Assembly (NCBI RefSeq): GCF_054482525.1
Contig: NZ_CM137006.1
Strand: one strand, 5' to 3'
DNA length: 64,000 nucleotides
Shown: positions 1 through 57,225 of the stretch, piece by piece
Layout: the number at the start of each line of letters is the position of its first letter
Position numbering within the stretch: the first letter of the stretch is position 1
Position numbers and translations under genes: made by a program
The notes under the pieces: generated by a model
Database searches by the model: none
Told to the model about the DNA's origin: nothing
Seen by the model: only the letters and a program-made list of their open reading frames with translations

Positions 1-729
1 GGTGGAACCGACCGCATCCGCCATATCGACAATAGCTTGTGGTGATTCTGGATGCACCAGTATGGCAGCATCCGGGTATTCTTCTTGCAAGCGGGTTAAC
101 GCCTGAGTCTTAAATTCATCATGCACAATGCAGGCACCCTGCCAGCATAAAATGTCTGCGCCCGTCTGTTTTTGCACGTAACGCCCCAGATGTTTGTCGG
201 GAGCCCAGATGATTTTTTCACCCAAACTATCCAGATGATCAATAAGTTCGACGGCAATGCTTGAAGTTACCACCCAATCTGCCCGCGCTTTTACCGCAGC
301 AGAAGTGTTGGCGTAGACGACGACAGTATGATCGGGATGGGCATCGCAAAATGCGTTAAATTCTTCAACTGGGCAGCCGAGATCCAGTGAACATTCAGCC
401 TGAAGTGTCGGCATCAGAATTGTTTTTTCCGGACTGAGAATTTTGGCGGTTTCTCCCATAAATCTCACCCCAGCGACTAACAACGTAGAAGCGGGATGCT
501 TTGCACCGAAGCGCGCCATTTCCAGAGAATCAGAAATACAGCCACCGGTTTCTTCTGCCAGTTGTTGAATTTCGGGATCGGTATAGTAATGGGCAACCAT
601 CACCGCATTACGTTCTTTTAGCAGACGTTTTATCTTCTCGCGGTAATACGCTTTTTCATCAATGCTTAACGGCGTCGGCTTCGGGGGGAAAGGATAAATC
701 GCCGTGTCTGGATCAAACATCACGCTCAT
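1..729 (-). CDS. nadA: Quinolinate synthase NadA, N-terminal part (gene continues beyond window start)
   Basis: Reverse-strand translation from ATG at 727-729 reads [49 protein letters not shown], the NadA N-terminus; rest of gene lies off-window. Confidence 0.9.
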
Positions 730-800
730 CTTACCATCTCGTTTTACAGGCTTAACGTTAAAACCGACATGAGCGTAATATTCGCTGTTATCGGTGTAAT

Positions 801-820
801 TTGTTTTATATGCTAAACAA
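801..820. promoter_or_regulatory. Palindrome TTGTTTTATATGCTAAACAA upstream of nadA, candidate NadR operator (NAD box)
   Basis: Inverted repeat TGTTTTA/TAAAACA about 75 bp upstream of the nadA start; NadR is known to repress nadA. Exact consensus recalled from memory only. Confidence 0.4.
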
Positions 821-944
821 GATAGTCGAATGGTGGGGAAAAGTCACTCGAATTACGCCTAATTCCACCGACGTAGAGTTGCTTGCAAAGTAAGCTCTGA
901 AGATGTCATCAGGTTACAAAGTGAAATTGAGGATGCCTGAATAG

Positions 945-972
945 CAAAAAAGCGCCTTTAGGGCGCTTTTTT
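945..972 (-). terminator. Rho-independent terminator-like hairpin (AGCGCC-loop-GGCGCT flanked by A6/T5), distal copy
   Basis: GC stem with flanking A and T runs; part of a 53-bp direct repeat also present at 1098-1150. Confidence 0.5.
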
Positions 973-976
973 ACAT

Positions 977-1097
977 TGGTGGGTCGTGCAGGATGACTCG
1001 CTTCGCTCGCCCTTCGGGCCGTCGCCGCGAGCGGCTCCGTTGTTTCGCTGCGCTCAACTCGAACCTGCTGCAGGTTCGAATCTTTGAGTATCGCAGA
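977..1097 (-). repeat. tRNA-Lys 3'-end fragment (18 nt) plus associated ~100 bp repeat unit, copy A
   Basis: TGGTGGGTCGTGCAGGAT matches the 3' end of the adjacent tRNA-Lys genes, then diverges into GATGACTCGCTTCGCTCGCCCTTCGGGCCG, a sequence shared with copies B and C. Confidence 0.6.
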
Positions 1098-1101
1098 TAG
1101 C

Positions 1102-1128
1102 AAAAAAGCGCCTTTAGGGCGCTTTTTT
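1102..1128 (-). terminator. Rho-independent terminator of the lysT tRNA operon (proximal copy)
   Basis: AAAAAAGCGCCTTTAGGGCGCTTTTTT hairpin immediately 3' of the last tRNA on the minus strand. Confidence 0.6.
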
Positions 1129-1132
1129 ACAT

Positions 1133-1208
1133 TGGTGGGTCGTGCAGGATTCGAACCTGCGACCAATTGATTAAAAGTCAACTGCTCTACCAACTGAGCT
1201 AACGACCC
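1133..1208 (-). tRNA. lysQ: tRNA-Lys (anticodon UUU)
   Basis: 76-nt reverse complement matches canonical E. coli tRNA-Lys (GGGTCGTTAGCTCAGTTGGTAGAGCAGTTGACTTTTAATCAATTGGTCGCAGGTTCGAATCCTGCACGACCCACCA). Confidence 0.95.
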
Positions 1209-1241
1209 CTTGCGGGATTATGCTGCTTTAATCATTCAGGA

Positions 1242-1317
1242 TGGTGGGTCGTGCAGGATTCGAACCTGCGACCAATTGATTAAAAGTCAACTGCTCTACC
1301 AACTGAGCTAACGACCC
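1242..1317 (-). tRNA. lysZ: tRNA-Lys (UUU)
   Basis: Identical 76-nt tRNA-Lys sequence on minus strand. Confidence 0.95.
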
Positions 1318-1365
1318 ATACGGGTGTTACCTGAAAGATTTCTACTCGGAACCAATCTTTAAAAT

Positions 1366-1463
1366 TGGTGGGTCGTGCAGGATGACTCGCTTCGCTCGCC
1401 CTACGGGCCGTTGCTAGCGCAACGTTATCCTTCACGCTTAACATCTGAGTTTGATGTTAAAAT
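1366..1463 (-). repeat. tRNA-Lys 3'-end fragment plus associated repeat unit, copy B
   Basis: TGGTGGGTCGTGCAGGAT followed by GACTCGCTTCGCTCGCCCTACGGGCCGTTGCTAGCGCAACGTTATCCTTCACG, near-identical to copy C. Confidence 0.6.
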
Positions 1464-1539
1464 TGGTGGGTCGTGCAGGATTCGAACCTGCGACCAATTG
1501 ATTAAAAGTCAACTGCTCTACCAACTGAGCTAACGACCC
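1464..1539 (-). tRNA. lysY: tRNA-Lys (UUU)
   Basis: Identical 76-nt tRNA-Lys sequence. Confidence 0.95.
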
Positions 1540-1542
1540 GAG

Positions 1543-1618
1543 TGGTGGGTGATGACGGGATCGAACCGCCGACCCCCTCCTTGTAAGGGAGGTGCTCTCC
1601 CAGCTGAGCTAATCACCC
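1543..1618 (-). tRNA. valZ: tRNA-Val (UAC)
   Basis: Reverse complement matches E. coli tRNA-Val GGGTGATTAGCTCAGCTGGGAGAGCACCTCCCTTACAAGGAGGGGGTCGGCGGTTCGATCCCGTCATCACCCACCA. Confidence 0.95.
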
Positions 1619-1669
1619 GATACTGCGCTGGATACTACAAACTACTTCCACCGAACCCACCGTAATTAG

Positions 1670-1745
1670 TGGTGGGTCGTGCAGGATTCGAACCTGCGAC
1701 CAATTGATTAAAAGTCAACTGCTCTACCAACTGAGCTAACGACCC
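1670..1745 (-). tRNA. lysW: tRNA-Lys (UUU)
   Basis: Identical 76-nt tRNA-Lys sequence. Confidence 0.95.
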
Positions 1746-1747
1746 GG

Positions 1748-1823
1748 TGGTGGGTGATGACGGGATCGAACCGCCGACCCCCTCCTTGTAAGGGAGGTGC
1801 TCTCCCAGCTGAGCTAATCACCC
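1748..1823 (-). tRNA. valT: tRNA-Val (UAC)
   Basis: Identical 76-nt tRNA-Val sequence. Confidence 0.95.
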
Positions 1824-1858
1824 GATACTACGCTGGATACTACAACTAACTAGGTTAG

Positions 1859-1958
1859 TGGTGGGTCGTGCAGGATGACTCGACTTCGTCTCGCCCTTCG
1901 GGCCGTTGCTGACGCAACGTTATCCTTCACGTTTTACTACCGCGTCCACCTTAGCGAT
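1859..1958 (-). repeat. tRNA-Lys 3'-end fragment plus associated repeat unit, copy C
   Basis: TGGTGGGTCGTGCAGGAT followed by GACTCGACTTCGTCTCGCCCTTCGGGCCGTTGCTGACGCAACGTTATCCTTCACG. Confidence 0.6.
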
Positions 1959-2034
1959 TGGTGGGTCGTGCAGGATTCGAACCTGCGACCAATTGATTAA
2001 AAGTCAACTGCTCTACCAACTGAGCTAACGACCC
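1959..2034 (-). tRNA. lysT: tRNA-Lys (UUU), first gene of the operon
   Basis: Identical 76-nt tRNA-Lys sequence; most promoter-proximal position on the minus strand. Confidence 0.95.
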
Positions 2035-2198
2035 ACTTTTTCGTTGCTTTCGGTTTGTTTGATATCCCGTGGCAACGGCGGCATATATTACTGATTTCAG
2101 ACTTGAGCGCAACAAAAATTTCGATGTAGATCACTCAACTGCTTATGATTCGCACGACACGACCAGAAATAATGCGACTTCTGGTCGTGTGTTATGCA

Positions 2199-2990
2199 TT
2201 ACATCGCGTTAAGACGTTTTTGTGCCTGTTTAGCGCCATCAGTACCAGGGTATTTACTGATAACCTGCTGGTATACGGCTTTCGCTTTTGCGGTGTCACC
2301 TTTGTCCTGCATGATGACACCGACTTTAAACATCGCATCTGCAGCCTTTGGCGACTTCGGATAGTTTTTTACTACCGAAGCAAAATAGTACGCCGCATCA
2401 TCTTTTTTACCCTTGTTGTAGTTTAACTGACCCAGCCAATAATTGGCGTTTGGCAGGTAAGTTGAATCAGGGTAATTTTTGATGAAATTCTGAAATGCCA
2501 CCATTGCGTCATCCTGGCGGGATTTATCCTGCACCAGCGCAATTGCTGCATTGTAATCCGTGTTTGCATCGCCGCTTTTCACCGGCGCGCCAGCATTCGC
2601 AGTACCAGCATCAGCTGTCGGCGTCGTTGATGCCGCCGCACCGCTTTGATCACCGCTGGTTGATTGCGCCGCTGCACCACCGCTGCTGAGGCTGTCGATC
2701 TGCAACAGGATCTGCTTTTGCCGCTCCACGACCTGATTCAGTTGATACTGATTTTCCTGAATCTGACCGCGCAGGGAATCAATATCGGATTGATTATCAG
2801 AGAGTTGTTGCTGGAGTTGGGTTAAAAGCTGGCTGTGAGCATTTGAAATACGCTCAAGTTGAGTGACGCGGTCTTCGACCGAGCCTGAGCCGACACTACT
2901 GATTGGTGCCTGAGCAAAAGCGGCCCAGGGGGCCGCTATACCAACCAGTAACGACAGACTCAATAGTTGATGTCTGAAGTTACTGCTCAT
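2199..2990 (-). CDS. cpoB: Cell division coordinator CpoB (YbgF), TPR protein
   Basis: 263-aa ORF MSSNFRHQLLSLSLLVGIAAPWAAFA... with signal peptide, Gln-rich coiled coil and C-terminal TPR region; synteny after pal. Confidence 0.9.
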   Translation of the reverse strand: MSSNFRHQLLSLSLLVGIAAPWAAFAQAPISSVGSGSVEDRVTQLERISNAHSQLLTQLQQQLSDNQSDIDSLRGQIQENQYQLNQVVERQKQILLQIDSLSSGGAAAQSTSGDQSGAAASTTPTADAGTANAGAPVKSGDANTDYNAAIALVQDKSRQDDAMVAFQNFIKNYPDSTYLPNANYWLGQLNYNKGKKDDAAYYFASVVKNYPKSPKAADAMFKVGVIMQDKGDTAKAKAVYQQVISKYPGTDGAKQAQKRLNAM

Positions 2991-2999
2991 GCAATTCTC

Positions 3000-3545
<546 letters not shown>

Positions 3546-3555
3546 TTAATTATTA

Positions 3556-4848
3556 TCACAGATACGGCGACCAGGCAGGGAATTTGACCTGTCCATCAGT
3601 TGCCGGAAGACGCGCTTTGAAACGCCCATCTGTAGAAACCAAATTCAGCACGGATCCCATCCCCTGAGAAGAGCTGTAGATTACCATAGTGCCGTTAGGT
3701 GCCAGACTTGGCGTTTCATCCAGGAACGTGGACGACAGAACTTGTACGCCTCCCGTTGCCAGATCTTGTTTGGCAATGTGCTGCTGCCCACCATTGGAGC
3801 TGACCATTACCATAAATTTACCGTCGCTGCTGACATCCGCATCCTGGTTCTGCGAACCTTCCCAGGTAATACGTTGTGGCGCACCGCCGTTGATATTCAC
3901 TTTATAAACCTGTGGACGACCGGCCTGGTCAGAAGTAAATGCCAGGTTCTGGCTGTCCGGGAACCAGGTCGGTTCGGTATTGTTACTGCGACCATCCGTC
4001 ACCTGGCGGATCTGACCAGAAGCCAAATCCATTACGTACAGGTTCAGACTACCGGTTTTCGACAAGGCGAATGCCAGTTTGCTGCCGTCTGGCGAGAATG
4101 CAGGTGCACCGTTGTGACGCGGGAATGAAGCCACCTGACGTACAGCGCCATTTGCCAGCGTTTGGATGACCAGCGCGGAACGACCGCTTTCGAAGGTCAC
4201 ATAAGCCAGTTTAGAACCGTCTGGTGACCACGCCGGAGACATCAGCGGCTGCGGTGAACGGTGAACGACAAACTGGTTGTAACCGTCATAGTCAGATACG
4301 CGCAGTTCATACGGGAACTGACCGCCGTTGGTCTGAACAACGTAGGCAATACGGGTACGGAACGCACCTTTAATGCCGGTCAGTTTTTCAAACACTTCAT
4401 CACTGGCGGTATGACCAGCATAACGCAGCCACTGCTTGTTCACTTTGTACGAGTTCTGAGCAAGTACAGTACCCGGTGCGCCGCCAGTGTCAACAAGTTG
4501 ATAAGCAACATTGTAAGAACCATCCGGATTCGGAGTGACCTGACCGACAACTACAGCGTCAATGCCCAGTGCGGACCATGCAGCTGGTTGTACTTCCTGC
4601 GCACTACCCGGCTGCTGTGGCAGACGAGCGCGATCTAACGGATTAAATTTACCGCTGTTACGCAAGTCAGCAGCAACGATGCCGCCAATATCTTCAGGTG
4701 CCGCACCAGGACCCGCCCACTGGAAAGGAACAACTCCAATAGGACGACCGGAATCTACACCGCTGTCGATCACAATGCGGACTTCAGCATGCAGAACTGA
4801 TGCCCACAGTATGAGAAAACCAAATGCTACTCGTAATGCCTGCTTCAT
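3556..4848 (-). CDS. tolB: Tol-Pal system periplasmic beta-propeller protein TolB
   Basis: 430-aa product [21 protein letters not shown]...; start taken as second Met of the ORF. Confidence 0.92.
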
Positions 4849-4980
4849 CATATCTCCCTTATCTGGACCGATGGCCCACGATAATTTAGCAGAATGTTAA
4901 CAAACTAAAATACACAAAACTACCAGAACCCCGTGGCAACCGGTGCCTGATGTTGACCGTCGGAACAGTCAACATCGCGA

Positions 4981-6246
4981 TTACGGTTTGAAGTCCAATG
5001 GCGCGTTTTTGAACACTTCATATACTGCCTGGCTTGGTGGTTTCGGGATCTTCGCAAGTTTAGCTGCTGCCAACGCAGCCTGACAAAGTGCGGGATCGCC
5101 ACCTTCAGGTTTGATATCCAGTAACATACCATCGGGTGCCAGTTTTATGCGCAGCGTACAGGTTTTGCCTGCATAGGACGATGCGTCATAGAACTTACTT
5201 TCGATAGCAGATTTAATCTGCCCGGCATAGTTATTGATATCGGCCCCTGATGCGCCATTGTTTTTAGTATTACCACTCCCGGCTGGCGAAGCATTGTTCC
5301 CTTTCGCCCCTCCCCCCGTTTTCGGTGCATTCTTACCAGAGCTTAGCTCACCGAAAATATCATCTGCCTCTGCGGCAGCTTTTGCTGCAGCGGCTTTTTC
5401 AGCTGCTGCTTTTGCCGCTGCCGCTTTTTTGTCTGCGGCGGCTTTTTCTGCCGCTGCTTTCTTATCAGCTGCTGCCTTTTCAGCAGCCGCTTTTTCTGCT
5501 GCTTTTTTGTCGGCTGCAGCTTTCTCTGCTGCCGCTTTCTTATCAGCTGCAGCCTTTTCAGCAGCCGCTTTCTTCTCAGCTTCTGCTTTGGCTTTTTCAG
5601 CAGCTTCAGTTGCCGCTTTCTTTCTTGCTTCAGCTGCAGCTGCTTCTGCCGCTTCCGCTTTCTTCTTCAGTGCCGCCGCGGCTGCCTCGGCTTTTTTCTG
5701 CGCTTCGGCTGCGGCTTTGGCGGCTTCTGCTTCTGCTTTTTTCTTCGCGTCTGCAGCCGCTTTCTTCGCAGCTTCTTCCGCAGCTTTAGCATCCGCTTCG
5801 GCCTTCGCTTTAGCATCTGCCGCCGCTTTCGCTGCCGCTTCTTCCGCTTGCTTCTGCTTTAACTCGGCCTGTTTTGCGGCTTCTTCAGCCTGCTTTTTCT
5901 GTTCCTGAGCAGCTAACCGCTCTTTCTCAAGTTGCTTCAGGCGTTCCTGTTCAGCCGCTTGTTTCTCACGCAGTTCTTCAGCGGCCTGCTGTTCCTTCAT
6001 CTTGCGCTGCTCATCAGAACGCTTCGCGCTTGATTCCTGGCTTTGCATGCGTTTGTACTGCTCAACTACCGCACCTGAATCAACCATGACAGCGTCGATG
6101 GATGAACCACCGCCGCCTCCGGCTGAAGCTTCTATATTCTCATCGAACGAACTCCAGATCAGCGCCGCAAATAAGATGACATGCAGCACTGCTGAAATAA
6201 TTATCGCCCGCTTGAGCTTGTCGTTTTGTTCGGTTGCCTTTGACAC
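4981..6246 (-). CDS. tolA: Tol-Pal system protein TolA
   Basis: 421 aa, N-terminal TM segment, long Ala/Lys/Glu-rich helical domain II, C-terminal domain III. Confidence 0.92.
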   Translation of the reverse strand: MSKATEQNDKLKRAIIISAVLHVILFAALIWSSFDENIEASAGGGGGSSIDAVMVDSGAVVEQYKRMQSQESSAKRSDEQRKMKEQQAAEELREKQAAEQERLKQLEKERLAAQEQKKQAEEAAKQAELKQKQAEEAAAKAAADAKAKAEADAKAAEEAAKKAAADAKKKAEAEAAKAAAEAQKKAEAAAAALKKKAEAAEAAAAEARKKAATEAAEKAKAEAEKKAAAEKAAADKKAAAEKAAADKKAAEKAAAEKAAADKKAAAEKAAADKKAAAAKAAAEKAAAAKAAAEADDIFGELSSGKNAPKTGGGAKGNNASPAGSGNTKNNGASGADINNYAGQIKSAIESKFYDASSYAGKTCTLRIKLAPDGMLLDIKPEGGDPALCQAALAAAKLAKIPKPPSQAVYEVFKNAPLDFKP

Positions 6247-21709: not shown

Positions 21710-23362
21710 ATGTCCAAACCATTTATCTGGCAAGAACCGTTTCTACAAAATAAAGACGGTACAGAATATACATTAATTAGCGATCAACATATTACAGTAA
21801 CGGAATTAGACGGCGAAGAAGTGATAAAAATCGCTCCTGAAGCATTAACGCTGCTTGCCCGGCAGGCATTTTATGAAGCCTCTTTTTTCTTACGTTCCGC
21901 TCATTTGCAACAGGTCGCCAGCATTTTTAACGATCCGCAGGCCAGCAGTAATGATAAATACGTTGCGTTGCAGTTATTACGTAATGCTGAAGTCTCAGCA
22001 AAAGGGGTATTACCCAACTGTCAGGATACCGGCACCGCAACTATTGTTGCCAGTAAAGGGCAACAGATATGGACCGGAGGTAACGACGCTGAAGCCTTAA
22101 GCAAAGGCATTTACACCACTTTCCAGGAAAATAATCTGCGCTTTTCACAAAATGCGCCGCTGGATATGTACACCGAAGTCAATACGCAAACCAATCTCCC
22201 GGCGCAGATTGATATCAGCGCTGTCGCTGGTGATGAGTACCATTTTCTCTGTGTTAATAAAGGGGGCGGCTCTGCCAATAAAGCCGCGCTTTATCAGGAA
22301 ACCAAATCCTTATTGCAACCAGAAAAACTGACCGCATTTTTAATCGAAAAAATGAAATCGCTGGGCACCGCTGCCTGCCCGCCTTACCACATCGCCTTTG
22401 TCGTCGGAGGGCTTTCAGCCGATCAAACCTTAAAAGTTGCCAAGCTGGCCTCTACGAAATATTACGACAATTTGCCCACCAGCGGAAACGAGCAGGGACA
22501 AGCATTCCGTGATATTGAGCTGGAAAAAGTGTTGCTCGAGGCCAGTCAGCAATTTGGTATTGGTGCGCAATTTGGGGGTAAATATTTCGCTCATGATATT
22601 CGCGTCATTCGTCTGCCGCGTCACGGTGGCTCTTGCCCGATAGCTATGGCGCTCTCCTGTTCTGCGGATCGCAATATCAAAGCAAAAATTAACAAGCACG
22701 GTATCTGGCTGGAAAAACTCGAACACAATCCTGGGCAATATATTCCAGCCTCACTACGGGAAGAAAATCACGCGCAACATGTACAACTGGATCTAAACCG
22801 TCCGTTGCGTGAAGTGATGCAGGATCTCGCCAGATTACCGGTAGGTACCCGCGTGTCGTTAAGTGGTCCCATCGTAGTGGCGCGCGATATCGCCCACGCC
22901 AAAATAAAAGTGCGGCTGGATAGCGGCGAACCGATGCCGGATTACCTGAAGCATCATATTGTCTATTACGCTGGCCCGGCGAAAACACCGGAGAACATGG
23001 CCTGCGGTTCACTGGGTCCAACCACGGGCGGTCGAATGGACGGTTATGTCGATACCTTCCAGGCTGCTGGCGGCAGTCTGGTAATGTTATCGAAAGGTAA
23101 CCGCAGCCAGCAGGTCACCGATGCCTGTCACAAACATGGCGGCTTCAATCTGGGAAGTATTGGCGGTGCAGCTGCGTTACTGGCGCAAGAATATGTCAAA
23201 AGTCTGCGTTGCCTGGAATACCCGGAGCTGGGTATGGAAGCGGTGTGGATGATGGAAGTGGAAAATTTACCCGCATTCATCCTGGTAGATGATAAAGGCA
23301 ATAATTTCTTTAGTCAGTTTGAGCAGCAACACCGCTGTGCCAGTTGCCCTGCGGGACATTAA
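21710..23362 (+). CDS. fumD: Class I fumarate hydratase paralog, probable mesaconase (FumD-like)
   Basis: 550 aa with strong similarity along its length to FumA/FumB ([44 protein letters not shown] motifs); located in the methylaspartate gene cluster. Confidence 0.85.
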
Positions 23363-23371
23363 GGAAAATGA

Positions 23372-23974
23372 ATGGAAGCGCGAATTTCAACTGAACGGCA
23401 TGTGCAGCACCAGCAAAAATTGAAGGAACAGGTCGATACGCGCGTCGCGGCGGCGATAGAGAAAAAAGGGATCTTGATTGTTTTCACCGGCAACGGCAAA
23501 GGGAAATCCACTGCCGCGTTTGGTACTGTGACGCGCGCGGTGGGTCATGGCAAAACGGTGGGGGTTGCGCAGTACATCAAGGGGCAATGGGACAACGGCG
23601 AATACAACCTTCTCCAGCCGCTGGGGGTTGAGTTTCATATTATGGGAACCGGTTTTACCTGGGAGACACAGAACCGGCAAGCGGATATCGACGCGGCGAA
23701 AGAGGTCTGGTCGGAAAGCAAACGGATGCTGGCTGACAAGCGTTACGACTTAGTGGTGCTTGATGAGCTGACCTATATGCTGGCTTACCATTATCTGGAC
23801 ACCGAAGAAGTGATCGCTTCTCTGCAAAACCGCCCGGCACAACAAAGTGTCATTGTCACCGGACGCGGTTGCCACAGTCAGATATTAAAAATGGCGGATA
23901 CGGTCAGCGAAATCCGCCCCGTCAAACATGCTTTTGATAACGGCATTCAGGCGCAGCCGGGTATCGACTGGTAA
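23372..23974 (+). CDS. Cob(I)alamin adenosyltransferase paralog (CobA/BtuR family)
   Basis: 200 aa; GILIVFTGNGKGKSTAAFG P-loop and overall similarity to E. coli BtuR (IIVFTGNGKGKTTAAFG). Confidence 0.85.
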   Translation: MEARISTERHVQHQQKLKEQVDTRVAAAIEKKGILIVFTGNGKGKSTAAFGTVTRAVGHGKTVGVAQYIKGQWDNGEYNLLQPLGVEFHIMGTGFTWETQNRQADIDAAKEVWSESKRMLADKRYDLVVLDELTYMLAYHYLDTEEVIASLQNRPAQQSVIVTGRGCHSQILKMADTVSEIRPVKHAFDNGIQAQPGIDW

Positions 23975-23981
23975 TAAATAT

Positions 23982-24005
23982 CCTCCGGCATAGCCGGAGG
24001 TTTTT
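23982..24005 (+). terminator. Rho-independent terminator of the glutamate-catabolism operon
   Basis: CCTCCGGC-ATA-GCCGGAGG followed by TTTTT immediately after the adenosyltransferase stop. Confidence 0.7.
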
Positions 24006-24712
24006 CAAATGCGCCTATAAGGCTCTCTTACCAGCCGCGCCCTAACAGGCGCACACGATCTGACATTTGCATCCAACTTCGTTACTTACGGCCCGTAAAC
24101 GGGCTGCCCGGATAGGGAATCGATAACTGCTCTCCCATTTTATCCTCTTCAAGCTGGTGCTTTATGTAATCCTGTATCTTCGCCGTGTTCTTACCCACCG
24201 TATCGACGTAGTACCCTCTGCACCAGAACTCCCTGTTCCTGTATTTGAATTTCAAATCACCAAACTGCTCGTAAAGCATCAGACTGCTTTTCCCTTTCAG
24301 ATATCCCATAAAGCCGGATACGCTCATTTTGGGCGGGATCTCCACAAGCATATGGATATGATCTGCACAGCATTCAGCTTCCAGAATCCGTACACTTTTC
24401 CACTCACACAGCTTTCTCAAAATACTGCCTATTGCTCTACGCTTCTCTCTGTAGAACACCTGTCTTCGGTATTTTGGCGCAAAAACTATGTGATATTTAC
24501 AGTTCCATCGGGTGTGCGCTAAGCTCTTTTCGTTCCCCATTGGGACCCCCTTTTGATTTCTTGTTTGACACTTGCAGTTGCCAGACCGCAAGGTGTTTTA
24601 ACAAATCAAAAGGGGTTTTAATAACTGGCTTAAAGCTGAAAGCTTTCCGGAACCCCCAGCCTAGCTGGGGGTTTTCTGTGCACAATAACTGCGCCTGGCA
24701 TCCCGCCAGGCG
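24006..24712 (-). mobile_element. IS200-like element (IS200/IS605 family), boundaries approximate
   Basis: Contains a Y1-transposase gene, a perfect palindrome AACCCCCAGCCTAGCTGGGGGTT about 120 bp upstream of tnpA and a 13-bp inverted repeat sequestering the tnpA start region, as in IS200. Confidence 0.6.
24082..24540 (-). CDS. tnpA: IS200 transposase TnpA (HUH Y1 transposase)
   Basis: 152 aa MGNEKSLAHTRWNCKYHIVFAPKYRRQVFY...HIHMLVEIPPK... with HuH motif and catalytic Tyr-containing C-terminus. Confidence 0.9.
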   Translation of the reverse strand: MGNEKSLAHTRWNCKYHIVFAPKYRRQVFYREKRRAIGSILRKLCEWKSVRILEAECCADHIHMLVEIPPKMSVSGFMGYLKGKSSLMLYEQFGDLKFKYRNREFWCRGYYVDTVGKNTAKIQDYIKHQLEEDKMGEQLSIPYPGSPFTGRK

Positions 24713-24718
24713 CAGGTT

Positions 24719-25624
24719 TTACATCTCCTGCGGTACAACCGATTTCGCCAGCAACCATTCACGAAATTGCTGCAAGTGCGGTGAGTCAGACTTCTCTTCC
24801 TGCCACGTCATAATAAAACGATTACCGGTACGAATAGGCACATCACAGGGAATCACCATATCGCCACTATCCAAATCATGTTGAATAGCGAACCGTGGTA
24901 ACAGCGCCACGCCGAGATTAGAGCGCACGGCGGCAATCAGCATTGAAAGCAAATCGAAACGTGGTCCGTTGTTGACCAGCGGACTGCTAACGCCAGATAA
25001 GGCAAACCACTCTTCCCAGCCAGTAATACGGGTACTTTGATGCAGAAGTGGTAACTCTGTAAGCAGTTCTGCCACTGACAGTTTTTGATCGGACATTGCA
25101 AGCAAACTGCCGCTGCATACCGGCAAAATCTCCTCTTCAAAGAGATATTCTACTTCCGCCCAGGGCGCGCAAAAATTTTCGCGCATAATGACAGCATCGT
25201 ACTCCCGATTAAGAAAATCGCCGTTATTAGCTAAAGAGTGAATATTAACAATAATATCGGGATGTAACTTTGTGAATTCATGTAAATTTGGGATTAACCA
25301 GTGGGTACTAAACGTAGGATTCACGGCAAGTTCAATAACCTTAACTGTAGGTTGCCAGGTCATAATGGTATTGGTATCGCGTTCCAGCTTATTTAATGTT
25401 TCTTTTACTATCCCCAGGTAATACTTCCCTGCATCATTAAGAAAAATACGTTTTTTAGAGTGTGAAAATAACGGAGTATGTAAAAATTCCTCCAGCGCAC
25501 TCACTTGTCTGAATACTGCACTTTGGGTTAACGCTAACTCCTCTGCCGCTCTGGTATAACTTTCATGACGTGCGACGACCTCAAAAGTCACCAGCAGTTC
25601 CGTTTTAGGTATTTTTCCTCGCAT
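24719..25624 (-). CDS. LysR-family transcriptional regulator
   Basis: 301 aa; N-terminal HTH (TFEVVARHESYTRAAEELALTQSAVFRQVSALEE) and LysR substrate-binding domain. Confidence 0.85.
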   Translation of the reverse strand: MRGKIPKTELLVTFEVVARHESYTRAAEELALTQSAVFRQVSALEEFLHTPLFSHSKKRIFLNDAGKYYLGIVKETLNKLERDTNTIMTWQPTVKVIELAVNPTFSTHWLIPNLHEFTKLHPDIIVNIHSLANNGDFLNREYDAVIMRENFCAPWAEVEYLFEEEILPVCSGSLLAMSDQKLSVAELLTELPLLHQSTRITGWEEWFALSGVSSPLVNNGPRFDLLSMLIAAVRSNLGVALLPRFAIQHDLDSGDMVIPCDVPIRTGNRFIMTWQEEKSDSPHLQQFREWLLAKSVVPQEM

Positions 25625-50036: not shown

Positions 50037-51450
50037 CTCCTTTCCTCGCTTCTTCGTACGCTGCCAGCGTTCGCAGCCTTGCCTCTTTGTGATCAACTAT
50101 CGGTTGCGGATAATCCAGCGTCACACCTGCTTTCTGCACCCACTTCCACGGCTCATGCACCGCTTTCCCTGGTACATCGCGCAGTTCCGGTAGCCACCGG
50201 CGGATAAACTCGCCTTCGCGGTCAAATTTCTCGCCCTGGGTTGTCGGGTTAAAAATACGAAAATACGGCGCTGCATCGGTTCCGGTTGAAGCGGCCCACT
50301 GCCAGCCACCGTTATTGGCTGCCAAATCACCATCAATCAGCTGCGACATGAAATATCGCTCGCCTTCGCGCCAGTCGATCAATAAATCTTTCACCAAAAA
50401 ACTGGCTGTAATCATCCGTAGCCGGTTATGCATCCAGCCAGTGCTGTTAAGCTGACGCATGGCAGCATCAACAATCGGGTATCCCGTTTTACCTTCTTGC
50501 CAGGCTTTAAAATGGGCGGGATTGCGCTGCCACTGCACACGATCCGTCCAGACAATAAACGGACGATGTTTACACAACGAGGGGTAATACGTCATCAAAT
50601 GGCGGTAGAACTCGCGCCAGATCAGCTCATTAAGCCAGACACTACCGGCCCCACCGTCCAGCGCCTGCGGCTGTTCCGCCAACAGGCGATGCAGACACTG
50701 GCGAGGCGATAACCCGCCCGTTGCCAGGCTGGCGGACAAACGGCTGGTACCTTCAACTGCCGGAAAATCTCGTTGTTGCTCATACTCTCCGGCACCGTTC
50801 TGGCAAAACTGGCGTAATTGCGCAATCGCCGCTTTTTCTTCCACCGGAAAATGCGCAGTATCGAAAGACTGACGAGGATAATTCAGCGTAATGGATGGCG
50901 CGGGCTCTATCGATCCGCTACTACGAACTTTTGGTGCAGCGACGCACTCCGGCATCCCTTCCCGCAGCCGTTTCAGCCAGGCATTCTTAAAAGGCGTAAA
51001 GACTTTGTACATCTCGTGATTGCCGGTCATCACCGCGCCAGGCGGCAGGATCACGCTGTCATCAAACCCTTCGCACAACACGTTACGCAGCGTTCTCTCA
51101 ACCTGCACATCCCGCGCCCGCTCATTCACCTCATACTGATAGTTATAAAAAAGATGAGTAACGCTGTTTTCCGCGCACACCTGTTTAATTATTTCGACGC
51201 TGGCGGCAAAGTCATCCACTTCACGGAACAATAAAGGAATACCTTTTTCCGCCAGCGCTATTCGTAGCCCATTCAGTTGAGCATTGATAAGTTTAGCCTG
51301 ACGCGGCGACATGTTATGCGTCGCCCACTGGCGTGGTGTAGCGATATACAGCGCCAGCACGCGTGCAGACGAATTGCGGCAGGCGGCAGCCAGTGCGAGA
51401 TTATCGTGCAGACGTAAATCCTGGCGAAACCAGACCAGATGAGTAGTCAT
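50032..51450 (-). CDS. phr: Deoxyribodipyrimidine photolyase
   Basis: 472 aa MTTHLVWFRQDLRLHDNLALAAACRNSSARVLALYIATPRQW... Confidence 0.93.
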   Translation of the reverse strand: MTTHLVWFRQDLRLHDNLALAAACRNSSARVLALYIATPRQWATHNMSPRQAKLINAQLNGLRIALAEKGIPLLFREVDDFAASVEIIKQVCAENSVTHLFYNYQYEVNERARDVQVERTLRNVLCEGFDDSVILPPGAVMTGNHEMYKVFTPFKNAWLKRLREGMPECVAAPKVRSSGSIEPAPSITLNYPRQSFDTAHFPVEEKAAIAQLRQFCQNGAGEYEQQRDFPAVEGTSRLSASLATGGLSPRQCLHRLLAEQPQALDGGAGSVWLNELIWREFYRHLMTYYPSLCKHRPFIVWTDRVQWQRNPAHFKAWQEGKTGYPIVDAAMRQLNSTGWMHNRLRMITASFLVKDLLIDWREGERYFMSQLIDGDLAANNGGWQWAASTGTDAAPYFRIFNPTTQGEKFDREGEFIRRWLPELRDVPGKAVHEPWKWVQKAGVTLDYPQPIVDHKEARLRTLAAYEEARKGA

Positions 51451-51956
51451 AAAACTCCTGAATGGCGCAAGTTAATCACACGCGGCCAAAGTTCGAAATA
51501 ACGCTGCCCTGAAAGCCAGGCGTCAGGATAAAGCGCCATATAGTGTTTGATACGCATCAGCGGCGCAAGAAGCTGTTGCTCGCCACGGCGATAACTGTCG
51601 ATAAGCGCCGCCAGCTGCTGGCGTTCTGTGGAATCAATATGTGGGCGAAAATATCCCTGAACGTGCATCAAAACGTTAGTATGATCACGCCGGTTGGCAG
51701 GGTGAGAAAGCAAAACAATTACGCGTTGGCGGTACTGGTTGTAATAGTCATCCAGATTTTGCCACCGGTGAATATCTGCCACGAACGGGCCAAGTTTGCG
51801 GTACTCGGGCTGGGAATGGGCCAGAAAGACGAGTTTATAGCGGCTGTGATAATCGTTGAGTGCCCCGCGCGTTAAGCCATGTTCTTTCAGTCGATATAGC
51901 TCATAAATCGCGAAGATGCGGATTAGGGTGCTTTCATCAAATCGTTGCTGATTCAT
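51447..51956 (-). CDS. ybgA: DUF1722 protein YbgA
   Basis: 169 aa from MNQQRFDESTLIRIFAIYELYRL...; ATGA overlap with phr. Confidence 0.85.
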   Translation of the reverse strand: MNQQRFDESTLIRIFAIYELYRLKEHGLTRGALNDYHSRYKLVFLAHSQPEYRKLGPFVADIHRWQNLDDYYNQYRQRVIVLLSHPANRRDHTNVLMHVQGYFRPHIDSTERQQLAALIDSYRRGEQQLLAPLMRIKHYMALYPDAWLSGQRYFELWPRVINLRHSGVL

Positions 51957-52240: not shown

Positions 52241-52615
52241 TTATTTCGTTATCTTAAATGCTATTTCTATATCACTCGTCCTTATAATCAAATTATTCTT
52301 ATTCATAGCTATTTTTGCAGGTTTAAAATAGCGGCTTTCACCAAAGTTAGCCATAAAAATTAGACTACAAGTTCTCCCAGCCTTTGCACATGAGAAAAAC
52401 CACCCATCAACTCTATTTATTCCTGAACCTTTAACACCATAATAAATCAGAATTTCTGGGTATTGTTCATCCTTCACGTTTTCATATTTTTGGTATTTAA
52501 TTGAAAACCAAGAGTCTATACTGCCAACATCTTCAAAAAATATTGGAGCTGATGTTTCCGCATGAACATATGCAGAAAATGCTAACAAAATGGCAATACT
52601 TAGTTTGGTAAACAT
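52241..52615 (-). CDS. Putative Rhs-toxin immunity protein with N-terminal signal peptide
   Basis: [24 protein letters not shown]... signal peptide; overlaps the 3' end of the Rhs C-terminal domain; AT-rich; alternative GTG start at 52627. Confidence 0.55.
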
Positions 52616-55600
52616 ATCGTTCCACACTTTTCAGGATAATCTATTGGGGGGAGGGGATCTTTTCCTCTAAATCTAATTGCACCCACGCCTTGTTTGTCAG
52701 ACCATTCGCCATTTGCATCCTGACGATACCAGTGATAATCCCCACCCATTCCTATAAAATTGTGAGGACGAATAAACAATTGAGCTTTATGGTAACCAGA
52801 TGGACAACTCCCATTATCTAAATCCTTGGCACCATCATTTTTTGACGCTTCAAAAATACTACTACAAGTGAGTTTAGAAAACTCTTTTCCAGATAATTCT
52901 CCAGGTTGTAATCCTCCGCCGCCAAAATTCCTACTCCCAGGATTTCCATACCTATTTAGAGCATATGAATAGCAATTATTTACGGCAAGATAATACGCAT
53001 CTGAATTTAGTTCTCGATTGAATACTGGAGCAGGTTTATCAATTAAGCCCAACGGATCAATAGAATAGGTTGGATGTATGGAAGCATATACATACTGATT
53101 CCACCCGCCTTCCAGCCCAATCGGATCCTGAGTGATATACCGCCCCTGCAGCGGGTCATAATAGCGGTGGCGGTTGTAATACAGGCCTGACTCCTCATCA
53201 TACTGCTGACCCGGCAGGCGGATGAGCTGCTGCAGCTGGTGCGGGTTCTCTTCATTCAGCTAGTTACCCCATTCATCGTATTCTGCGCACCATTCTGTTG
53301 CCCCTTCCGTGCTGACAAGCGCCAGCGGCAGGCCGCGATGGTCGCAGTGGTACAGGTGGATTTTTCGCGCCGGCGTGTACACCGGGTCCATCTGGTTTTG
53401 CATCTGCTCCACCGTCAGGCCGCACGATGCCAGCCAGCGGCGGCTTTCCTCACTCACCCGGTCAGTAAGGATTTCACTTTCCAGCCGGTCGAGCATCTGC
53501 ACCAGCACCGGCGGGAACACCACATCACCACCGTCTTCACCGCCGGACTGCTGAAGCGCATCCGCCAGGCTGCGGCGCTGCGTTTTCGCCAGCTCACCGG
53601 TGGCAGTTTCAACTCTGATGAGTGGCGTGAAGCTCCCCGGCTGATAAACCGTCTGGATGCGGGTTCTGTCGTTCTGTATCGTGGTCAGCCGGTCGCCGTC
53701 CCAGCCGTACCAGGTCACTTCCGGTTTCCGTGACAGCGACATCCAGCCCGTCAGGTCCCGTTCACGCCGCCACACCCGTTTTGCCACCCTGCGGCCCAGC
53801 GGGTCGTAAAGATAGCGACTTTCGACCAGCGGCTCTGCATATTGTGTCCGCGTGTAGTGCACCAGCCGGTGCTGACTGTCGTAATGGTACTGGTGAGTCC
53901 GCTCATCATCCGTGCGGATAACCCCTTCCGGGATGAGGTCGGTTTTCTCTGTCAGCCTGCCGTGACGGTCATACCGGTAAAGATAGTGCGCGTCACGGGC
54001 GATACGGTTATCCGGCCACATGCTGAGGGTGCTGTCCGGGTGCAGCTCCGGGTCGGGCAGGCGGTTACCTGCCGGGTCTGTGGCATACGGGATGCGGATA
54101 TCAAGGTTCGCTGCCGTGGTGTGAACGCCGGTCAGCCTGCCGGAGTCGCTGTAGCTGTAACTCCGGGTCTGGCGCGGGCTGCTGATGCGGATGAGTTCGC
54201 CGTTGTCGTTCCAGGTGTAATCGCGGTCATACTGCAGGCTGTTCAGATGCTGGCTCTGTAACTGCCCGGCAGGGGTGTAAGCGGTGGTGAGTTCATAACG
54301 GCCGAAGCTGCGCAGCGTTTCCCGGTGCAGGCGGTCGCGGGTGAAATCCACCAGCGGTGTGTCGCCGAGTTTCATGCCTGACAGCCAGCCGCTGCCGTAG
54401 GTCAGCCATTCCACGGCGGGCAGGCTGTCCGGTATACAGCGGTTCGCCAGTCCCTGCGCGTTGTAAGCGTGTCTGGTTTCATGCTGCCAGAGCAGTGCTT
54501 CCGTCTGCGGGTGATGCACCGTCTGGCGCTCACCGGTCAGGCGGCCTTTCTCATCATACCCGTAATGCACCGTCACCCGGTGGCCTTCGCTGAGATGGCT
54601 GATTTGTGTCAGCCAGCCGCGTTCGTCATACTGCCACTGCTCTGCCGGTTCACCCTTCACGGTGCGGTGAGTGAGGCGGTCTGCTTCGTCATAGTGCCAG
54701 TGGGTGACCAGCCCCTCATCCTCGCTGCGGATAAGTTTGCCGGTCAGGTCGTGGTGATAACGCTGTGTGCGGCCGTCAAAGCCGGTTTCCTGTATCAGCC
54801 GGTCAAGTACATCGTAACGGAAGGTGGTGTGGCTGCCGTTTTCACTGGTCAGGCGGATGACCCGTCCGGCAGCATCGTATTCCATACTGCGCGTCAGACC
54901 GCCCTGCGTGGTACGGATGGCCTTTCCCCACGCATCGTACTGTGTCCCGTTTCTGCTGCCGTCCGGGGCAATGACGGCGGTCAGGTCACCGGCGGCGTTG
55001 TATTCATACCGCGTTTCATGGCCCTGCATGTCTTTCACCGCAATTAACTGTCCACGGCTGTCGTATGCGCGGTACTGGCTCAGGCCTTCCTCGCGGTGCA
55101 CCGCCGTCACCTGACCAAAACGGTCATGGTCATAACGGGTTACATAACCGGAACAGTCAGTGACGGTCAGCAACTGACCGTAACGGCTCCATGTCATGGT
55201 TTTCCGGCTGCCGGTGGCATCCTCCGTTGCGCAGGGTAAGTCACTGTGTGGATTATCATAACGGTAGCGGGTGATATCGCCGTCAGGGGCAGTTTCCTGA
55301 ATCAGACGGCCGGATTCATCATATTCCCGGCGTATTTCCAGCCCGTCAGTCCCGGTGGCTGACGTTAACTGGCTGTGGTGGTTATAGTAAAACGCCGATG
55401 CCCTGCCATCCGGCGTGGTGATGCGCGTGATGAGGCCCGTCACCACATCCGGGCTGTATTCTGTTGTCCGGCCTGCGGCATCCGTCTGTGCCTTAAGCCT
55501 GCCCACCGCATCAAACTGACTCTGCGTGACGCTGCCGTCCGCGTGTTCCTTTTTCACCACCCGCTTCAGCCCGCCTTCGCCCTGCGTGTGCAGCACTTCA

Positions 55601-56775
55601 CGGCGGTCCAGACTGTCGGTGATGGTGATGCGGTCTTTCTCATACTGATACGTGTAGCTTAAGCCTGCCGGGTTTAGCTGCTCTGTCACCCGCCCGTCGC
55701 TGTCGTAACGGTAACGGATTTCCGGCCGGCCCGTGTGACGGTGCGCCACCATCCGGCCCCGGTATTTATCATCGTAAGTAAAGCTGCGCACCTGTGTATT
55801 GCTGCGGTCATACACCGCCGCCAGTTCGCCGCGCGGCGTCCAGCCATAGCGTACCAGCGGCGCGGCTGGCAGGTTATCCGGATATTCCGGGTCGTGCGTC
55901 AGCCACACGGCAGACAGACGGATGCCGTTGTCCCGGCCATATTCGGTGTAACCCGGCAGGGTATCAGGAAAAGCGGACGGTTCCGTCCCGCCGGAAATGG
56001 CCTGCTGCCGGGCTTCTTCTGCCCGCTGCGCCTGCGTGGTCAGTACCAGCCGGAAGTGACGCCCGGCACCATCCGTCACGCCGCTGAATTCGCCGCCAGC
56101 CTCACGGTGGAACGTCTGTGTGCGCCCGAAGCGGTCCACCAGCCCGGTCAGTACCCGGTACGGCGGCAGCGGCGCAGGCAGCACCTCATCCGCCTCCGGC
56201 ACCCGCTCACACCAGCCGAGTACCCACCACGGCCCCTGCGGACTGTTCGTCGCCAGATAACGATGCGGACTCAGGCGAAGCTCTTCCGGCAGCGCCTGCC
56301 AGAGTGCGGCCAGCCGGTGACCTTCATCCAGTTTCGCCACGCCGCCACGCACCAGCCAGAGTGACTCGCTGCGGCTGTAACCGTCCTCACCGGGAAACAG
56401 GTGCTCAAAATACAGGCTCCTGCCGCCGTTATCACTGAGTATCAGTGTGTTATCGCGCAGCTGTAAGCGGATATCCGCGGGCATTTTCCAGCCGGGGCCG
56501 AGGCTCCCCACCGGCGCGGGCGTTTTTGTCCGGTAACTGCTGTAGGTGCGGGAGAGGATGAACGGCAGCGGGCCGGGCAGGGCAAGGTCGGTTTCGCCGG
56601 GAAGGACCTTCGCACCGAGCAGCGGATTGACCGGATGGCCGGACGTCACCCCGCCGGGGCACACCGAACAGGCCACGCCGGTGGGGGCACCGATGCGCAC
56701 CCCGGCTGAACCCTGAACAATGCTACCGCCATACTGCGTCATGTCGCCCTGACGCGCCGCCGGTTTTCCGCTCAT
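52600..56775 (-). pseudogene. rhsC: rhs element gene (RhsC-like) interrupted by in-frame TAG at 53260-53262; core 53263-56775, C-terminal toxin region 52600-53259
   Basis: N-terminus [17 protein letters not shown] and YD-repeat core match Rhs proteins; expected WGNLLNEENP reads WGN-stop-LNEENP; same frame continues through DPIGL...DPLGL into a 145-aa C-terminal domain. Confidence 0.8.
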
Positions 56776-57018: not shown

Positions 57019-57225
57019 TCAGTAAAAATCACCAGTTGCCTTTTCTGCCTGATCCATCCACACCGGTTTCTCGCTGGTTTTCGACCAGACGCGGTGCAGG
57101 TAGCTGTAAAAGCGGGCGCGGTCTTTCCAGAAAAGCATGAAAGGCAGCGCCAGAACGCCCGCTGCAACCGCATAAGTACGGCGTAAAAAGATAAGCCATG
57201 CAGGATATTCTCTGTAGAGTTCCAT
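57019..57225 (-). CDS. ybfA: DUF2517 small membrane protein YbfA
   Basis: 68 aa [68 protein letters not shown]. Confidence 0.85.

Follow-up and report, generated by a model that had tools for sequence, protein, structure and literature searches.

The 64,000-nucleotide stretch of DNA analysed here (the window) carries an rhs gene on its minus strand at the rhsC locus, which has the compact gene order ybfA-rhs-ORF-ybgA. The rhs reading frame (56775..52600) is interrupted by an in-frame TAG at 53260-53262, leaving an ORF of 1171 codons (56775..53260) that closes with the residues EYDEWGN directly ahead of the stop. Pfam places DUF6531 (aa 46-123), YD/RHS repeats, and the start of an RHS domain (aa 1139-1171) behind the N-terminal region of this truncated product. 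Past the TAG, a further 219 in-frame codons run without a stop to a TAA at 52600-52602, reading LNEENP, DPIGL, and DPLGL in that order and then 147 more residues. The TAG is codon 1172 of the 1244-codon Rhs core; the remaining 72 codons of the Rhs-associated core (53044..53259), which hold the autoproteolysis motifs and whose translation is lost, lead into a C-terminal toxin domain of 147 aa plus the TAA (52600..53043), for which a papain-like fold is predicted. Its predicted catalytic residues are Cys24 in an NNCYSYA motif (codon at 52972..52974) and His104 in a DYHWYRQD motif (codon at 52732..52734).

Overlapping the end of rhs by 16 nt on the same strand is a candidate immunity gene (52241..52615), which begins with the ATG at 52615 and encodes 124 aa according to PGAP. 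It is intact, and its product is identical to WP_000494464.1, present in SCU-102 and PCN033. Under heuristic n/h/c-region and AXA rules, the N terminus resembles a Sec signal peptide of 19 residues (52559-52615) cut before ETS. The locus is flanked upstream by ybfA (57019..57225) and downstream by ybgA (51447..51956), both on the minus strand. GC content falls from 61.8% in the Rhs core to 39.2% in the C-terminal domain and 32.0% in the downstream ORF. Between rhs and its flanks there are no ybfB/ybfO/ybfC or H-repeat ORFs and no orphan rhs fragments; K-12 rhsC, with its orphan modules and H-repeat, is much less compact. The initial annotation had recognised this compactness, the frame running on through DPIGL and DPLGL into an intact toxin domain, and the overlapping signal-peptide ORF, all of which hold. 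It had also counted 145 rather than 147 aa in the C-terminal domain and set the TAG at the core/C-terminal junction; the in-frame TAG near the 3' end of the core stands, and that position was approximate, the junction lying 72 codons further downstream.

Within the E. coli RhsA/RhsC toxin-delivery family, this gene is the member found at the rhsC locus. Its core differs by only 7 nt from that of an intact orthologue, the PCN033 "RHS element core protein" WP_047938335.1, in which NF041261 (RHS_core) spans aa 1-1244 at 2596 bits against a cutoff of 2000 and TIGR03696 (Rhs_assc_core) spans aa 1166-1244. The two genes share the ybfA-rhs-ybgA locus, a length of 1391 codons, YD repeats, DPxGL motifs (DPIGL and DPLGL lying in frame past the TAG in the window), a variable toxin tip, and a downstream candidate immunity gene. 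What sets the window copy apart is the amber at codon 1172, which breaks the frame and makes it a pseudogene. An intact RhsC would comprise an N-terminal region, a YD-repeat shell, the Rhs-associated core with its DPxGL autoprotease motifs, the 147-aa tip, and the immunity protein encoded downstream. There are no T6SS genes within the window; what support there is for T6SS-dependent delivery comes from published work on PAAR-Rhs toxins of E. coli and on the PCN033 T6SS (PMC6730261, PMC4882540).

The initial annotation called the C-terminal domain uncharacterised, and we agree: neither the toxin domain nor the immunity protein has a match in Pfam, NCBIfam, or PHROGs, a Pfam hit of the toxin domain to OCRE (i-E 0.021) being dismissed as noise. 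A word-indexed homologue search returned just 5 toxin and 7 immunity relatives; the family became visible only by exhaustive search, which recovered 3447 representatives of the toxin domain at E <= 1e-3. These relatives are joined to PAAR, RHS, DUF4157, and ChW domains, occur also in lipoproteins, and are spread over bacteria, archaea, giant viruses, and some eukaryotes. Within E. coli, the toxin/immunity module is present in 40 of 5426 complete genomes and recurs as a unit, intact in ST2747 and as a displaced orphan in GF43. Across 258 family domains, N23, C24, P47, H104, K117, and Y136 are essentially invariant, Cys24 and His104 being present in every one; D102, S115, and K117 are conserved and are candidates for the third catalytic residue. 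Cys60, Cys80, and Cys140 are each conserved at 81-91% in the same set, which suggests that they form disulfide bonds.

An AF2 model of the toxin domain built from 48 sequences reached a pLDDT of 93.2 (a shallower input of 4 sequences gave a pLDDT of 56 and was unusable). In this model, Cys24 opens a helix (24-29) and His104 lies within a strand (102-108), giving the papain-like arrangement of a Cys at a helix N terminus packed on a His-bearing beta-sheet. The tip is thus predicted to be a Cys24/His104 papain-like hydrolase belonging to a large family without a name. Foldseek weakly matched the C39 peptidase domain of PCAT1 (E 0.4-0.8), and the fold-search lists include Tae3, Tse1, and Tae2. 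LytA amidase, the sole PDB sequence match (E 0.13 over 38 residues with a shallow profile), disappeared when a deeper profile was used and was set aside.

Several known toxin families resemble the E. coli tip in part. The T6SS peptidoglycan amidases (Tse1/Tae1, Tae2, Tae3, and Tae4, with periplasmic Tsi/Tai immunity proteins) likewise combine a compact papain-like hydrolase of the Cys-His type with an immunity protein that is secreted; there was no Pfam match to the Tae families, NlpC/P60 (PF00877), or CHAP (PF05257), either for the query at E <= 10 or for 48 relatives at E <= 0.1. RHS or PAAR proteins can also end in the papain-like toxin domains Tox-PL1, Tox-PL-2, and Tox-PL3 (Zhang et al. 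2012, PMC3482391). In the E. coli tip, the NC ahead of the catalytic Cys recalls the NC-H-DxQ signature of Tox-PL1, but the residues from the His onward, HWYRQD, differ. Neither Tox-PL1 nor Tox-PL-2 appears among the Pfam matches of the query (OCRE only) or of the 48 relatives, whose matches are to five unrelated families only (DUF7689, Imm53, DsbD_N, E1_dh, and DUF3309); since we take both to have Pfam models, we read this absence as a negative test. Tox-PL3 is set apart by its description: the E. coli tip agrees neither with its signature (C,[DE]H,[DE],R) nor with the taxonomy reported for it, nor with its being confined to polymorphic toxins. DUF7689 (PF24738) is the only Pfam family with any signal among the relatives, 2 of 48 matching at E <= 1e-3 (best 8.1e-05) and 6 of 48 at E <= 0.1, while the E. 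coli domain itself has no match. Full-text literature searches found no papers on DUF7689 or on the motifs of the toxin family, and the domain is not described in recent surveys of T6SS and contractile-injection-system toxins or in the Cpe1 paper. Among the closest known systems are the C39-like cysteine protease toxins Cpe1/TsaP/EvpQ (PMC12136450) and the permuted NlpC/P60 lipid-targeting Tox-Act1/TseH (PMC12994826).

An immunity protein with a signal peptide would be expected to neutralise its toxin in the periplasm or envelope. Two relatives, P0030 and P0027, have partner ORFs that share homology with the E. coli immunity protein and begin with a signal peptide or hydrophobic N-terminal segment; the partner of P0008 has a signal-like N terminus, and that of P0024, with two or more strongly hydrophobic segments, resembles a membrane-embedded protein. 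The signal peptides and transmembrane segments in these partners strengthen the periplasmic targeting proposed in the initial annotation, although one PAAR-linked relative has a partner ORF without a clear signal peptide, which counts against an envelope site. Judging from these sequence features and from the probable disulfides of the toxin family, the toxin most likely acts outside the target-cell cytoplasm, in the periplasm or envelope, and our leading guess for its substrate is a peptidoglycan amide or peptide bond. It is unlikely that the domain is instead a cysteine protease acting in the cytoplasm in the manner of Cpe1, a C39-type toxin that cleaves GyrB/ParE (PMC12136450); papain-like interbacterial toxins with cytosolic targets are known from that work, and the weak PCAT1 matches point the same way.

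The TAG that silences this domain is real. The independently assembled genome of SCU-102, separated from the window by just 2 SNPs over 11.2 kb and 4 SNPs over 47.6 kb, has the same TAG at both rhsC and rhsA, and PCN033 rhsA carries it too; a sequencing error in the window is therefore ruled out. Intact orthologues of the same length are found in PCN033, ST2747, 1190, and 19KM1831, and since their lengths are exactly equal, the toxin-bearing frame past the TAG is not there by chance. At codon 1172, the intact PCN033 rhsC has CAG, as does E2865 rhsA, where the 61-mer around the codon is otherwise identical to the TAG-bearing one; the remaining alleles examined, among them rhsC of 1190, 19KM1831, and ST2747, have CTG. 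Since CAG stands in the allele whose flanks are otherwise identical, the ancestral codon was CAG (Gln) and the change a C>T transition. The TTG-to-TAG change first suggested for the stop is ruled out, as TTG occurs in none of the alleles examined.

The idea that the stop is special finds no support: only 2 among 5426 complete E. coli genomes contain the exact TAG 61-mer, and SCU-102 rhsC is already marked by PGAP as a pseudogene with an internal stop. The check for amber suppressors called for in the initial annotation found none among the glutamine tRNAs examined; glnV and glnX of SCU-102 have normal CTG anticodons, so that neither is a supE-type suppressor, and the only tRNA genes within the window are for Lys and Val. 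The TAG is an ordinary, recent pseudogenising mutation.

How the TAG reached rhsC is indicated by the differences around it. The window and PCN033 differ at ten positions in 11.2 kb, five of which (53288, 53262, 53255, 53251, and 53248) are packed into 41 bp around the TAG; we roughly estimate the chance of such clustering at ~4e-8. All five match PCN033 rhsA, itself TAG-bearing, and because this 41-bp cluster is identical to a TAG-bearing rhsA, the TAG was most likely copied from rhsA to rhsC by gene conversion. The five differences define a minimal conversion tract of 53248..53288. Its 3' limit is 53117, the point at which rhsA and rhsC diverge, while no 5' limit can be placed, since upstream of the tract nothing distinguishes the two cores; in SCU-102, rhsA and rhsC are identical over nt 1-3659. 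Most likely, then, the CAG>TAG nonsense mutation would have arisen first in the paralogue rhsA, and a short non-reciprocal recombination between nearly identical cores would then have moved it into rhsC.

The direction of conversion, most likely as given, rests on parsimony and on the availability of a donor. Horizontal gain of the CAG allele by PCN033 rhsC is a conceivable alternative, in which rhsA and rhsC of the common ancestor both carried TAG and the PCN033 gene was later repaired. Two observations lend this some substance: the PCN033-type tract is absent from the other rhsC genes examined with this toxin (CTG in 1190, 19KM1831, and ST2747), and the PCN033-type 61-mer occurs in 115 other genomes, so that a foreign donor can be imagined. 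That 61-mer is nevertheless found at a single place in the PCN033 genome, leaving the reverse scenario with no internal donor, whereas a TAG-bearing rhsA donor is present in both strains; repair would also require horizontal transfer plus one further event, and we consider it improbable, slightly more so than a cytoplasmic site of action for the toxin. Less probable still is a second, independent point mutation in rhsC by recurrent C>T change. In its favour, one transition is enough for CAG>TAG and this codon is affected at two loci, but the TAG is accompanied within 41 bp by four more linked substitutions that match rhsA exactly, its context (AACCAGCTG) reads CCAGC and is not a Dcm CCWGG deamination hotspot, and the identity of the SCU-102 cores over 3659 nt speaks of ongoing homogenisation.

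Least credible of all is a functional stop, at which programmed read-through or suppression would yield a regulated, low level of full-length toxin with a near-cognate tRNA-Gln restoring the ancestral Gln: of the stop codons, UAG is the one that leaks most in E. coli, with Gln inserted in its place, and both the frame past the TAG and the immunity gene are undamaged, but orthologues have sense codons (CAG or CTG), the TAG is confined to the two genomes noted above, glnV and glnX are not suppressors, and an undamaged downstream frame is equally expected of a very recent mutation, PCN033 and the window showing zero extra differences in the toxin and immunity region.

Translation of the window copy would end at codon 1172; since the stop precedes the segment that would close the shell and release the toxin, no toxin would be produced. 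The immunity gene being intact, the strain would be disarmed yet protected. We hold the account as a whole, a recent pseudogene created by rhsA-to-rhsC conversion and bearing a Cys24/His104 papain-like tip that most likely acts in the envelope, with good confidence.

The stop itself carries little weight, being a routine and already annotated pseudogene. It does offer a clean case from nature in which gene conversion has most likely carried a nonsense mutation from one rhs paralogue to another, which would have disarmed both full-length RhsA-family toxins of the strain and left their immunity genes intact. The part worth pursuing is the toxin domain, with its high-confidence papain-like model, absence of any clear profile match or solved relative, thousands of homologues, and periplasm-directed immunity protein. 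We tentatively suggest, at somewhat short of even chances, that E. coli is represented by this tip in a very large papain-like family that has no name and seems not to have been characterised, its members numbering in the thousands and marked by an invariant Cys, His, and Lys and by probable disulfides, and that the family may have an envelope target and a chemistry new to T6SS effectors. If so, the intact PCN033 or ST2747 allele together with the signal-peptide immunity protein would offer a ready genetic model. Knowing the substrate would give a large set of proteins now listed as "hypothetical" an annotation and might extend the known activities of interbacterial toxins by a new one aimed at the envelope.

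The rhsC locus of this E. coli lies on the minus strand of the window in the order kdpA-kdpF-ybfA, rhs, small ORF, and ybgA-phrB-dtpD. The truncated rhs ORF starts at 56775 and runs for 1171 codons, ending in EYDEWGN, to an in-frame TAG at 53260-53262; past it the frame stays open through a 147-aa domain that terminates at 52600-52602. The downstream ORF (52615..52241, minus strand; 124 aa) overlaps the end of rhs by 16 nt, and its N terminus, judged by inspection, reads as a textbook Sec signal with a predicted cut before ETS. The rhs core is 61.8% GC, against 39.2% for the C-terminal domain and 32.0% for the downstream ORF. All the descriptive elements of the initial annotation (TAG, open frame, C-terminal domain, and signal-peptide ORF) were borne out by the window sequence. 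Elsewhere in the window, positions 11936-25624 (mapped from 1419943-1433631 of E. coli strain SCU-102) hold an accessory island between sucD and cydA, a position at which K-12 carries mngRAB. The island is a glutamate-fermentation (mesaconate pathway) gene set, with genes for methylaspartate mutase (glmS/glmL/glmE), methylaspartate ammonia-lyase, a class I fumarate hydratase, a dicarboxylate symporter, cobO, and a LysR regulator, as well as an IS200C transposase at about 24082-24540.

The TAG is an ordinary stop and is already annotated: SCU-102 (NZ_CP051753) is near-identical to the window (2 differences in 11.2 kb, 4 in 47.6 kb), and its counterpart is labelled "RHS element core protein, pseudogene, internal stop" by PGAP, the NCBI annotation pipeline. 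The close relative PCN033 has an intact orthologue of equal length (WP_047938335.1, 1391 aa) that reads CAG at this position; ST2747, 1190, and 19KM1831 likewise have intact copies, in which the codon is CTG. Because CAG is read both in PCN033 rhsC and in the rhsA allele of E2865, which otherwise matches the window 61-mer exactly, the nonsense change is a single CAG (Gln)-to-TAG transition. The TTG-to-TAG origin first proposed was not upheld, since TTG is found in none of the alleles examined, which have CAG or CTG. The context of the codon is not a Dcm hotspot, and this source of the C-to-T change was rejected.

We found nothing to support a special role for the stop in read-through or suppression. 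The exact TAG-bearing 61-mer occurs in 2 of the 5426 complete E. coli genomes searched, SCU-102 and PCN033, and the TAG is not conserved across that set. The initial annotation had also raised amber suppression; glnV and glnX of SCU-102 both have the normal CTG anticodon rather than a supE-type one, and the tRNAs inside the window are Lys and Val only. Natural low-level misreading of UAG by tRNA-Gln would bring back the ancestral Gln. An intact frame after the TAG is what a very recent mutation would leave; the toxin and immunity genes show no additional differences between the window and PCN033.

The position of the TAG is explained most economically by transfer from rhsA, the paralogue at the yibF-rhsA-yibA locus. 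The window and PCN033 differ at 10 positions over 11.2 kb, 5 of which fall inside 41 bp (53288, 53262, 53255, 53251, and 53248), a clustering with a chance of about 4e-8 by rough estimate. At all five the window equals PCN033 rhsA, in which the TAG is likewise present and is noted as "internal stop" in the annotation. SCU-102 rhsA (1118-5305 of its locus, L016) also carries the TAG and is 100% identical to SCU-102 rhsC (L001 1686-5861) over nt 1-3659, up to the exact point where the toxin-specific ends part, a case of concerted evolution of rhs cores through gene conversion. The TAG would thus have arisen in rhsA before PCN033 and SCU-102 diverged, and its tract would later have been copied into rhsC in the lineage of SCU-102 and the window. 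The reverse history, in which the TAG-type rhsC is older and PCN033 rhsC was repaired later, is improbable: import is conceivable, given that the PCN033 rhsC-type tract is present in 115 other genomes, but that tract occurs once in the PCN033 genome, which leaves no internal donor for repair. Under transfer from rhsA to rhsC, the spread of the TAG is a neat but expected trait of rhs genes. The third 61-mer match in the PCN033 and SCU-102 genomes is an orphan rhs fragment adjoining yibA that reads CTG, so both full-length RhsA-family genes of the window/SCU-102 lineage are knocked out at the same codon; in SCU-102 both of these toxin genes carry the TAG and both immunity genes are intact.

In the intact orthologue, NF041261 (RHS_core) spans aa 1-1244 and TIGR03696 (Rhs_assc_core) aa 1166-1244. 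The truncated window ORF keeps DUF6531 (46-123) and the RHS repeats. The stop at codon 1172 costs it the toxin and nearly all of the Rhs-associated core, with its DPxGL autoproteolysis and plug region; going by what is established for Rhs proteins, the product would be incapable of toxin encapsulation or release. The immunity gene in the window is intact and identical to the PCN033 copy (WP_000494464.1), and its expression may drop with lost translational coupling. A 1.2-kb block comprising the core end, the toxin, and the immunity gene was found in 40 of the 5426 genomes, adjoining ybgA in all cases inspected. GF43 has a newer rhs toxin/immunity pair in front of the block, which has become a displaced "orphan", as is typical of polymorphic toxins. 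Absent from the compact rhsC locus of the window are the orphan modules that trail behind rhsA (L003 and L016; e.g., L003 7439-11977): immunity genes of the NTF2 fold, a gene for DUF6258, disrupted pentapeptide-repeat genes, an Rhs fragment with a frameshift and, after it, a tlde1-domain toxin, and an Imm57 immunity gene that is also frameshifted.

The toxin belongs to a distinct family without a name. Searches of the 147-aa domain against Pfam, NCBIfam, PHROGs, and PDB sequences gave no match, and Foldseek of its model against the PDB returned nothing at E ≤ 1e-3; against AFDB, Foldseek retrieved the family itself, nearly all labelled "uncharacterized". An exhaustive HMM search yielded 3447 representative proteins at E ≤ 1e-3 (1684 at ≤ 1e-10), with the domain at the C terminus of Rhs, PAAR, DUF4157, and ChW proteins and also in lipoproteins, LamG and Ig proteins, and giant-virus metagenome and eukaryotic (Acrasis, Tetradesmus) proteins; 2 of 48 family members touched Pfam DUF7689 at E ≤ 1e-3. 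Over 258 aligned domains, N23, C24, P47, H104, K117, and Y136 are essentially invariant, D70, D102, R107, W114, and G119 are conserved at ≥98%, and Cys60, Cys80, and Cys140 at 81-91%. The AlphaFold2 model (48-sequence alignment; pLDDT 93.2, pTM 0.88) begins a helix at Cys24 and places His104 within the central beta-sheet, in agreement with the papain-like fold suggested at the outset; the predicted fold is that of a canonical (non-permuted) papain-like Cys-His hydrolase. The domain is not a member of the C39-like Cpe1 family or of the permuted Tox-Act1/TseH group, and it departs from the published signatures of Tox-PL1 and Tox-PL3.

The toxin probably acts in the periplasm or envelope, because of the signal or membrane features of the partner proteins encoded beside it and its relatives, its conserved cysteines, and its many secreted or lipoprotein relatives. 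The E. coli partner, the candidate immunity protein, has a signal peptide, as first proposed, and two conserved cysteines, and its homologues beside the nearest toxin relatives share the motif GSGI..DGWF.SC....C. Of these homologues, the P0030 partner has a clear N-terminal signal peptide and the P0027 partner an N-terminal hydrophobic signal or anchor segment. The partner of another relative, P0008, has a signal-like N terminus; the P0024 partner, in which two or more segments are strongly hydrophobic, is membrane-embedded by appearance, and in one PAAR-linked relative the signal of the partner is not clear. The cell-wall target suggested at the outset is a tentative leading guess, in the form of amidase or endopeptidase action on peptidoglycan as in Tae effectors; the evidence is equally compatible with lipid, lipoprotein, or protein substrates. 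On the metagenome contig carrying P0024 (L006 1-7977), at least five Rhs C-terminal cassettes stand in tandem, and behind every one is a small ORF of its own. Imm44, GH-E with SUFU, and Tox-HDC are the known domains among them; one cassette carries the papain-like domain of this family, and the small ORF after it has two or more strongly hydrophobic segments.

In one very numerous subgroup (P0199, P0236, and P0261; about 290 aa), the papain-like domain is preceded by a conserved N-terminal module of some 130 aa (motif D[IM]FSGRENP…TLGYRG) that is without annotation and had no Pfam match. Other relatives (P0045, P0048, P0150, and AFDB A0A6C0C5X6, A0A6C0HNK3, A0AAW2YU97, and A0A383WCF6) are "viral metagenome" (giant-virus-like) or eukaryotic proteins, the latter from Tetradesmus obliquus and from Acrasis kona, where they are named "insoluble matrix shell protein"; their His motif is often DYHFYRQD. 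The residual interest of the locus is this uncharacterized toxin family, whose viral and eukaryotic members suggest a role beyond bacterial warfare.
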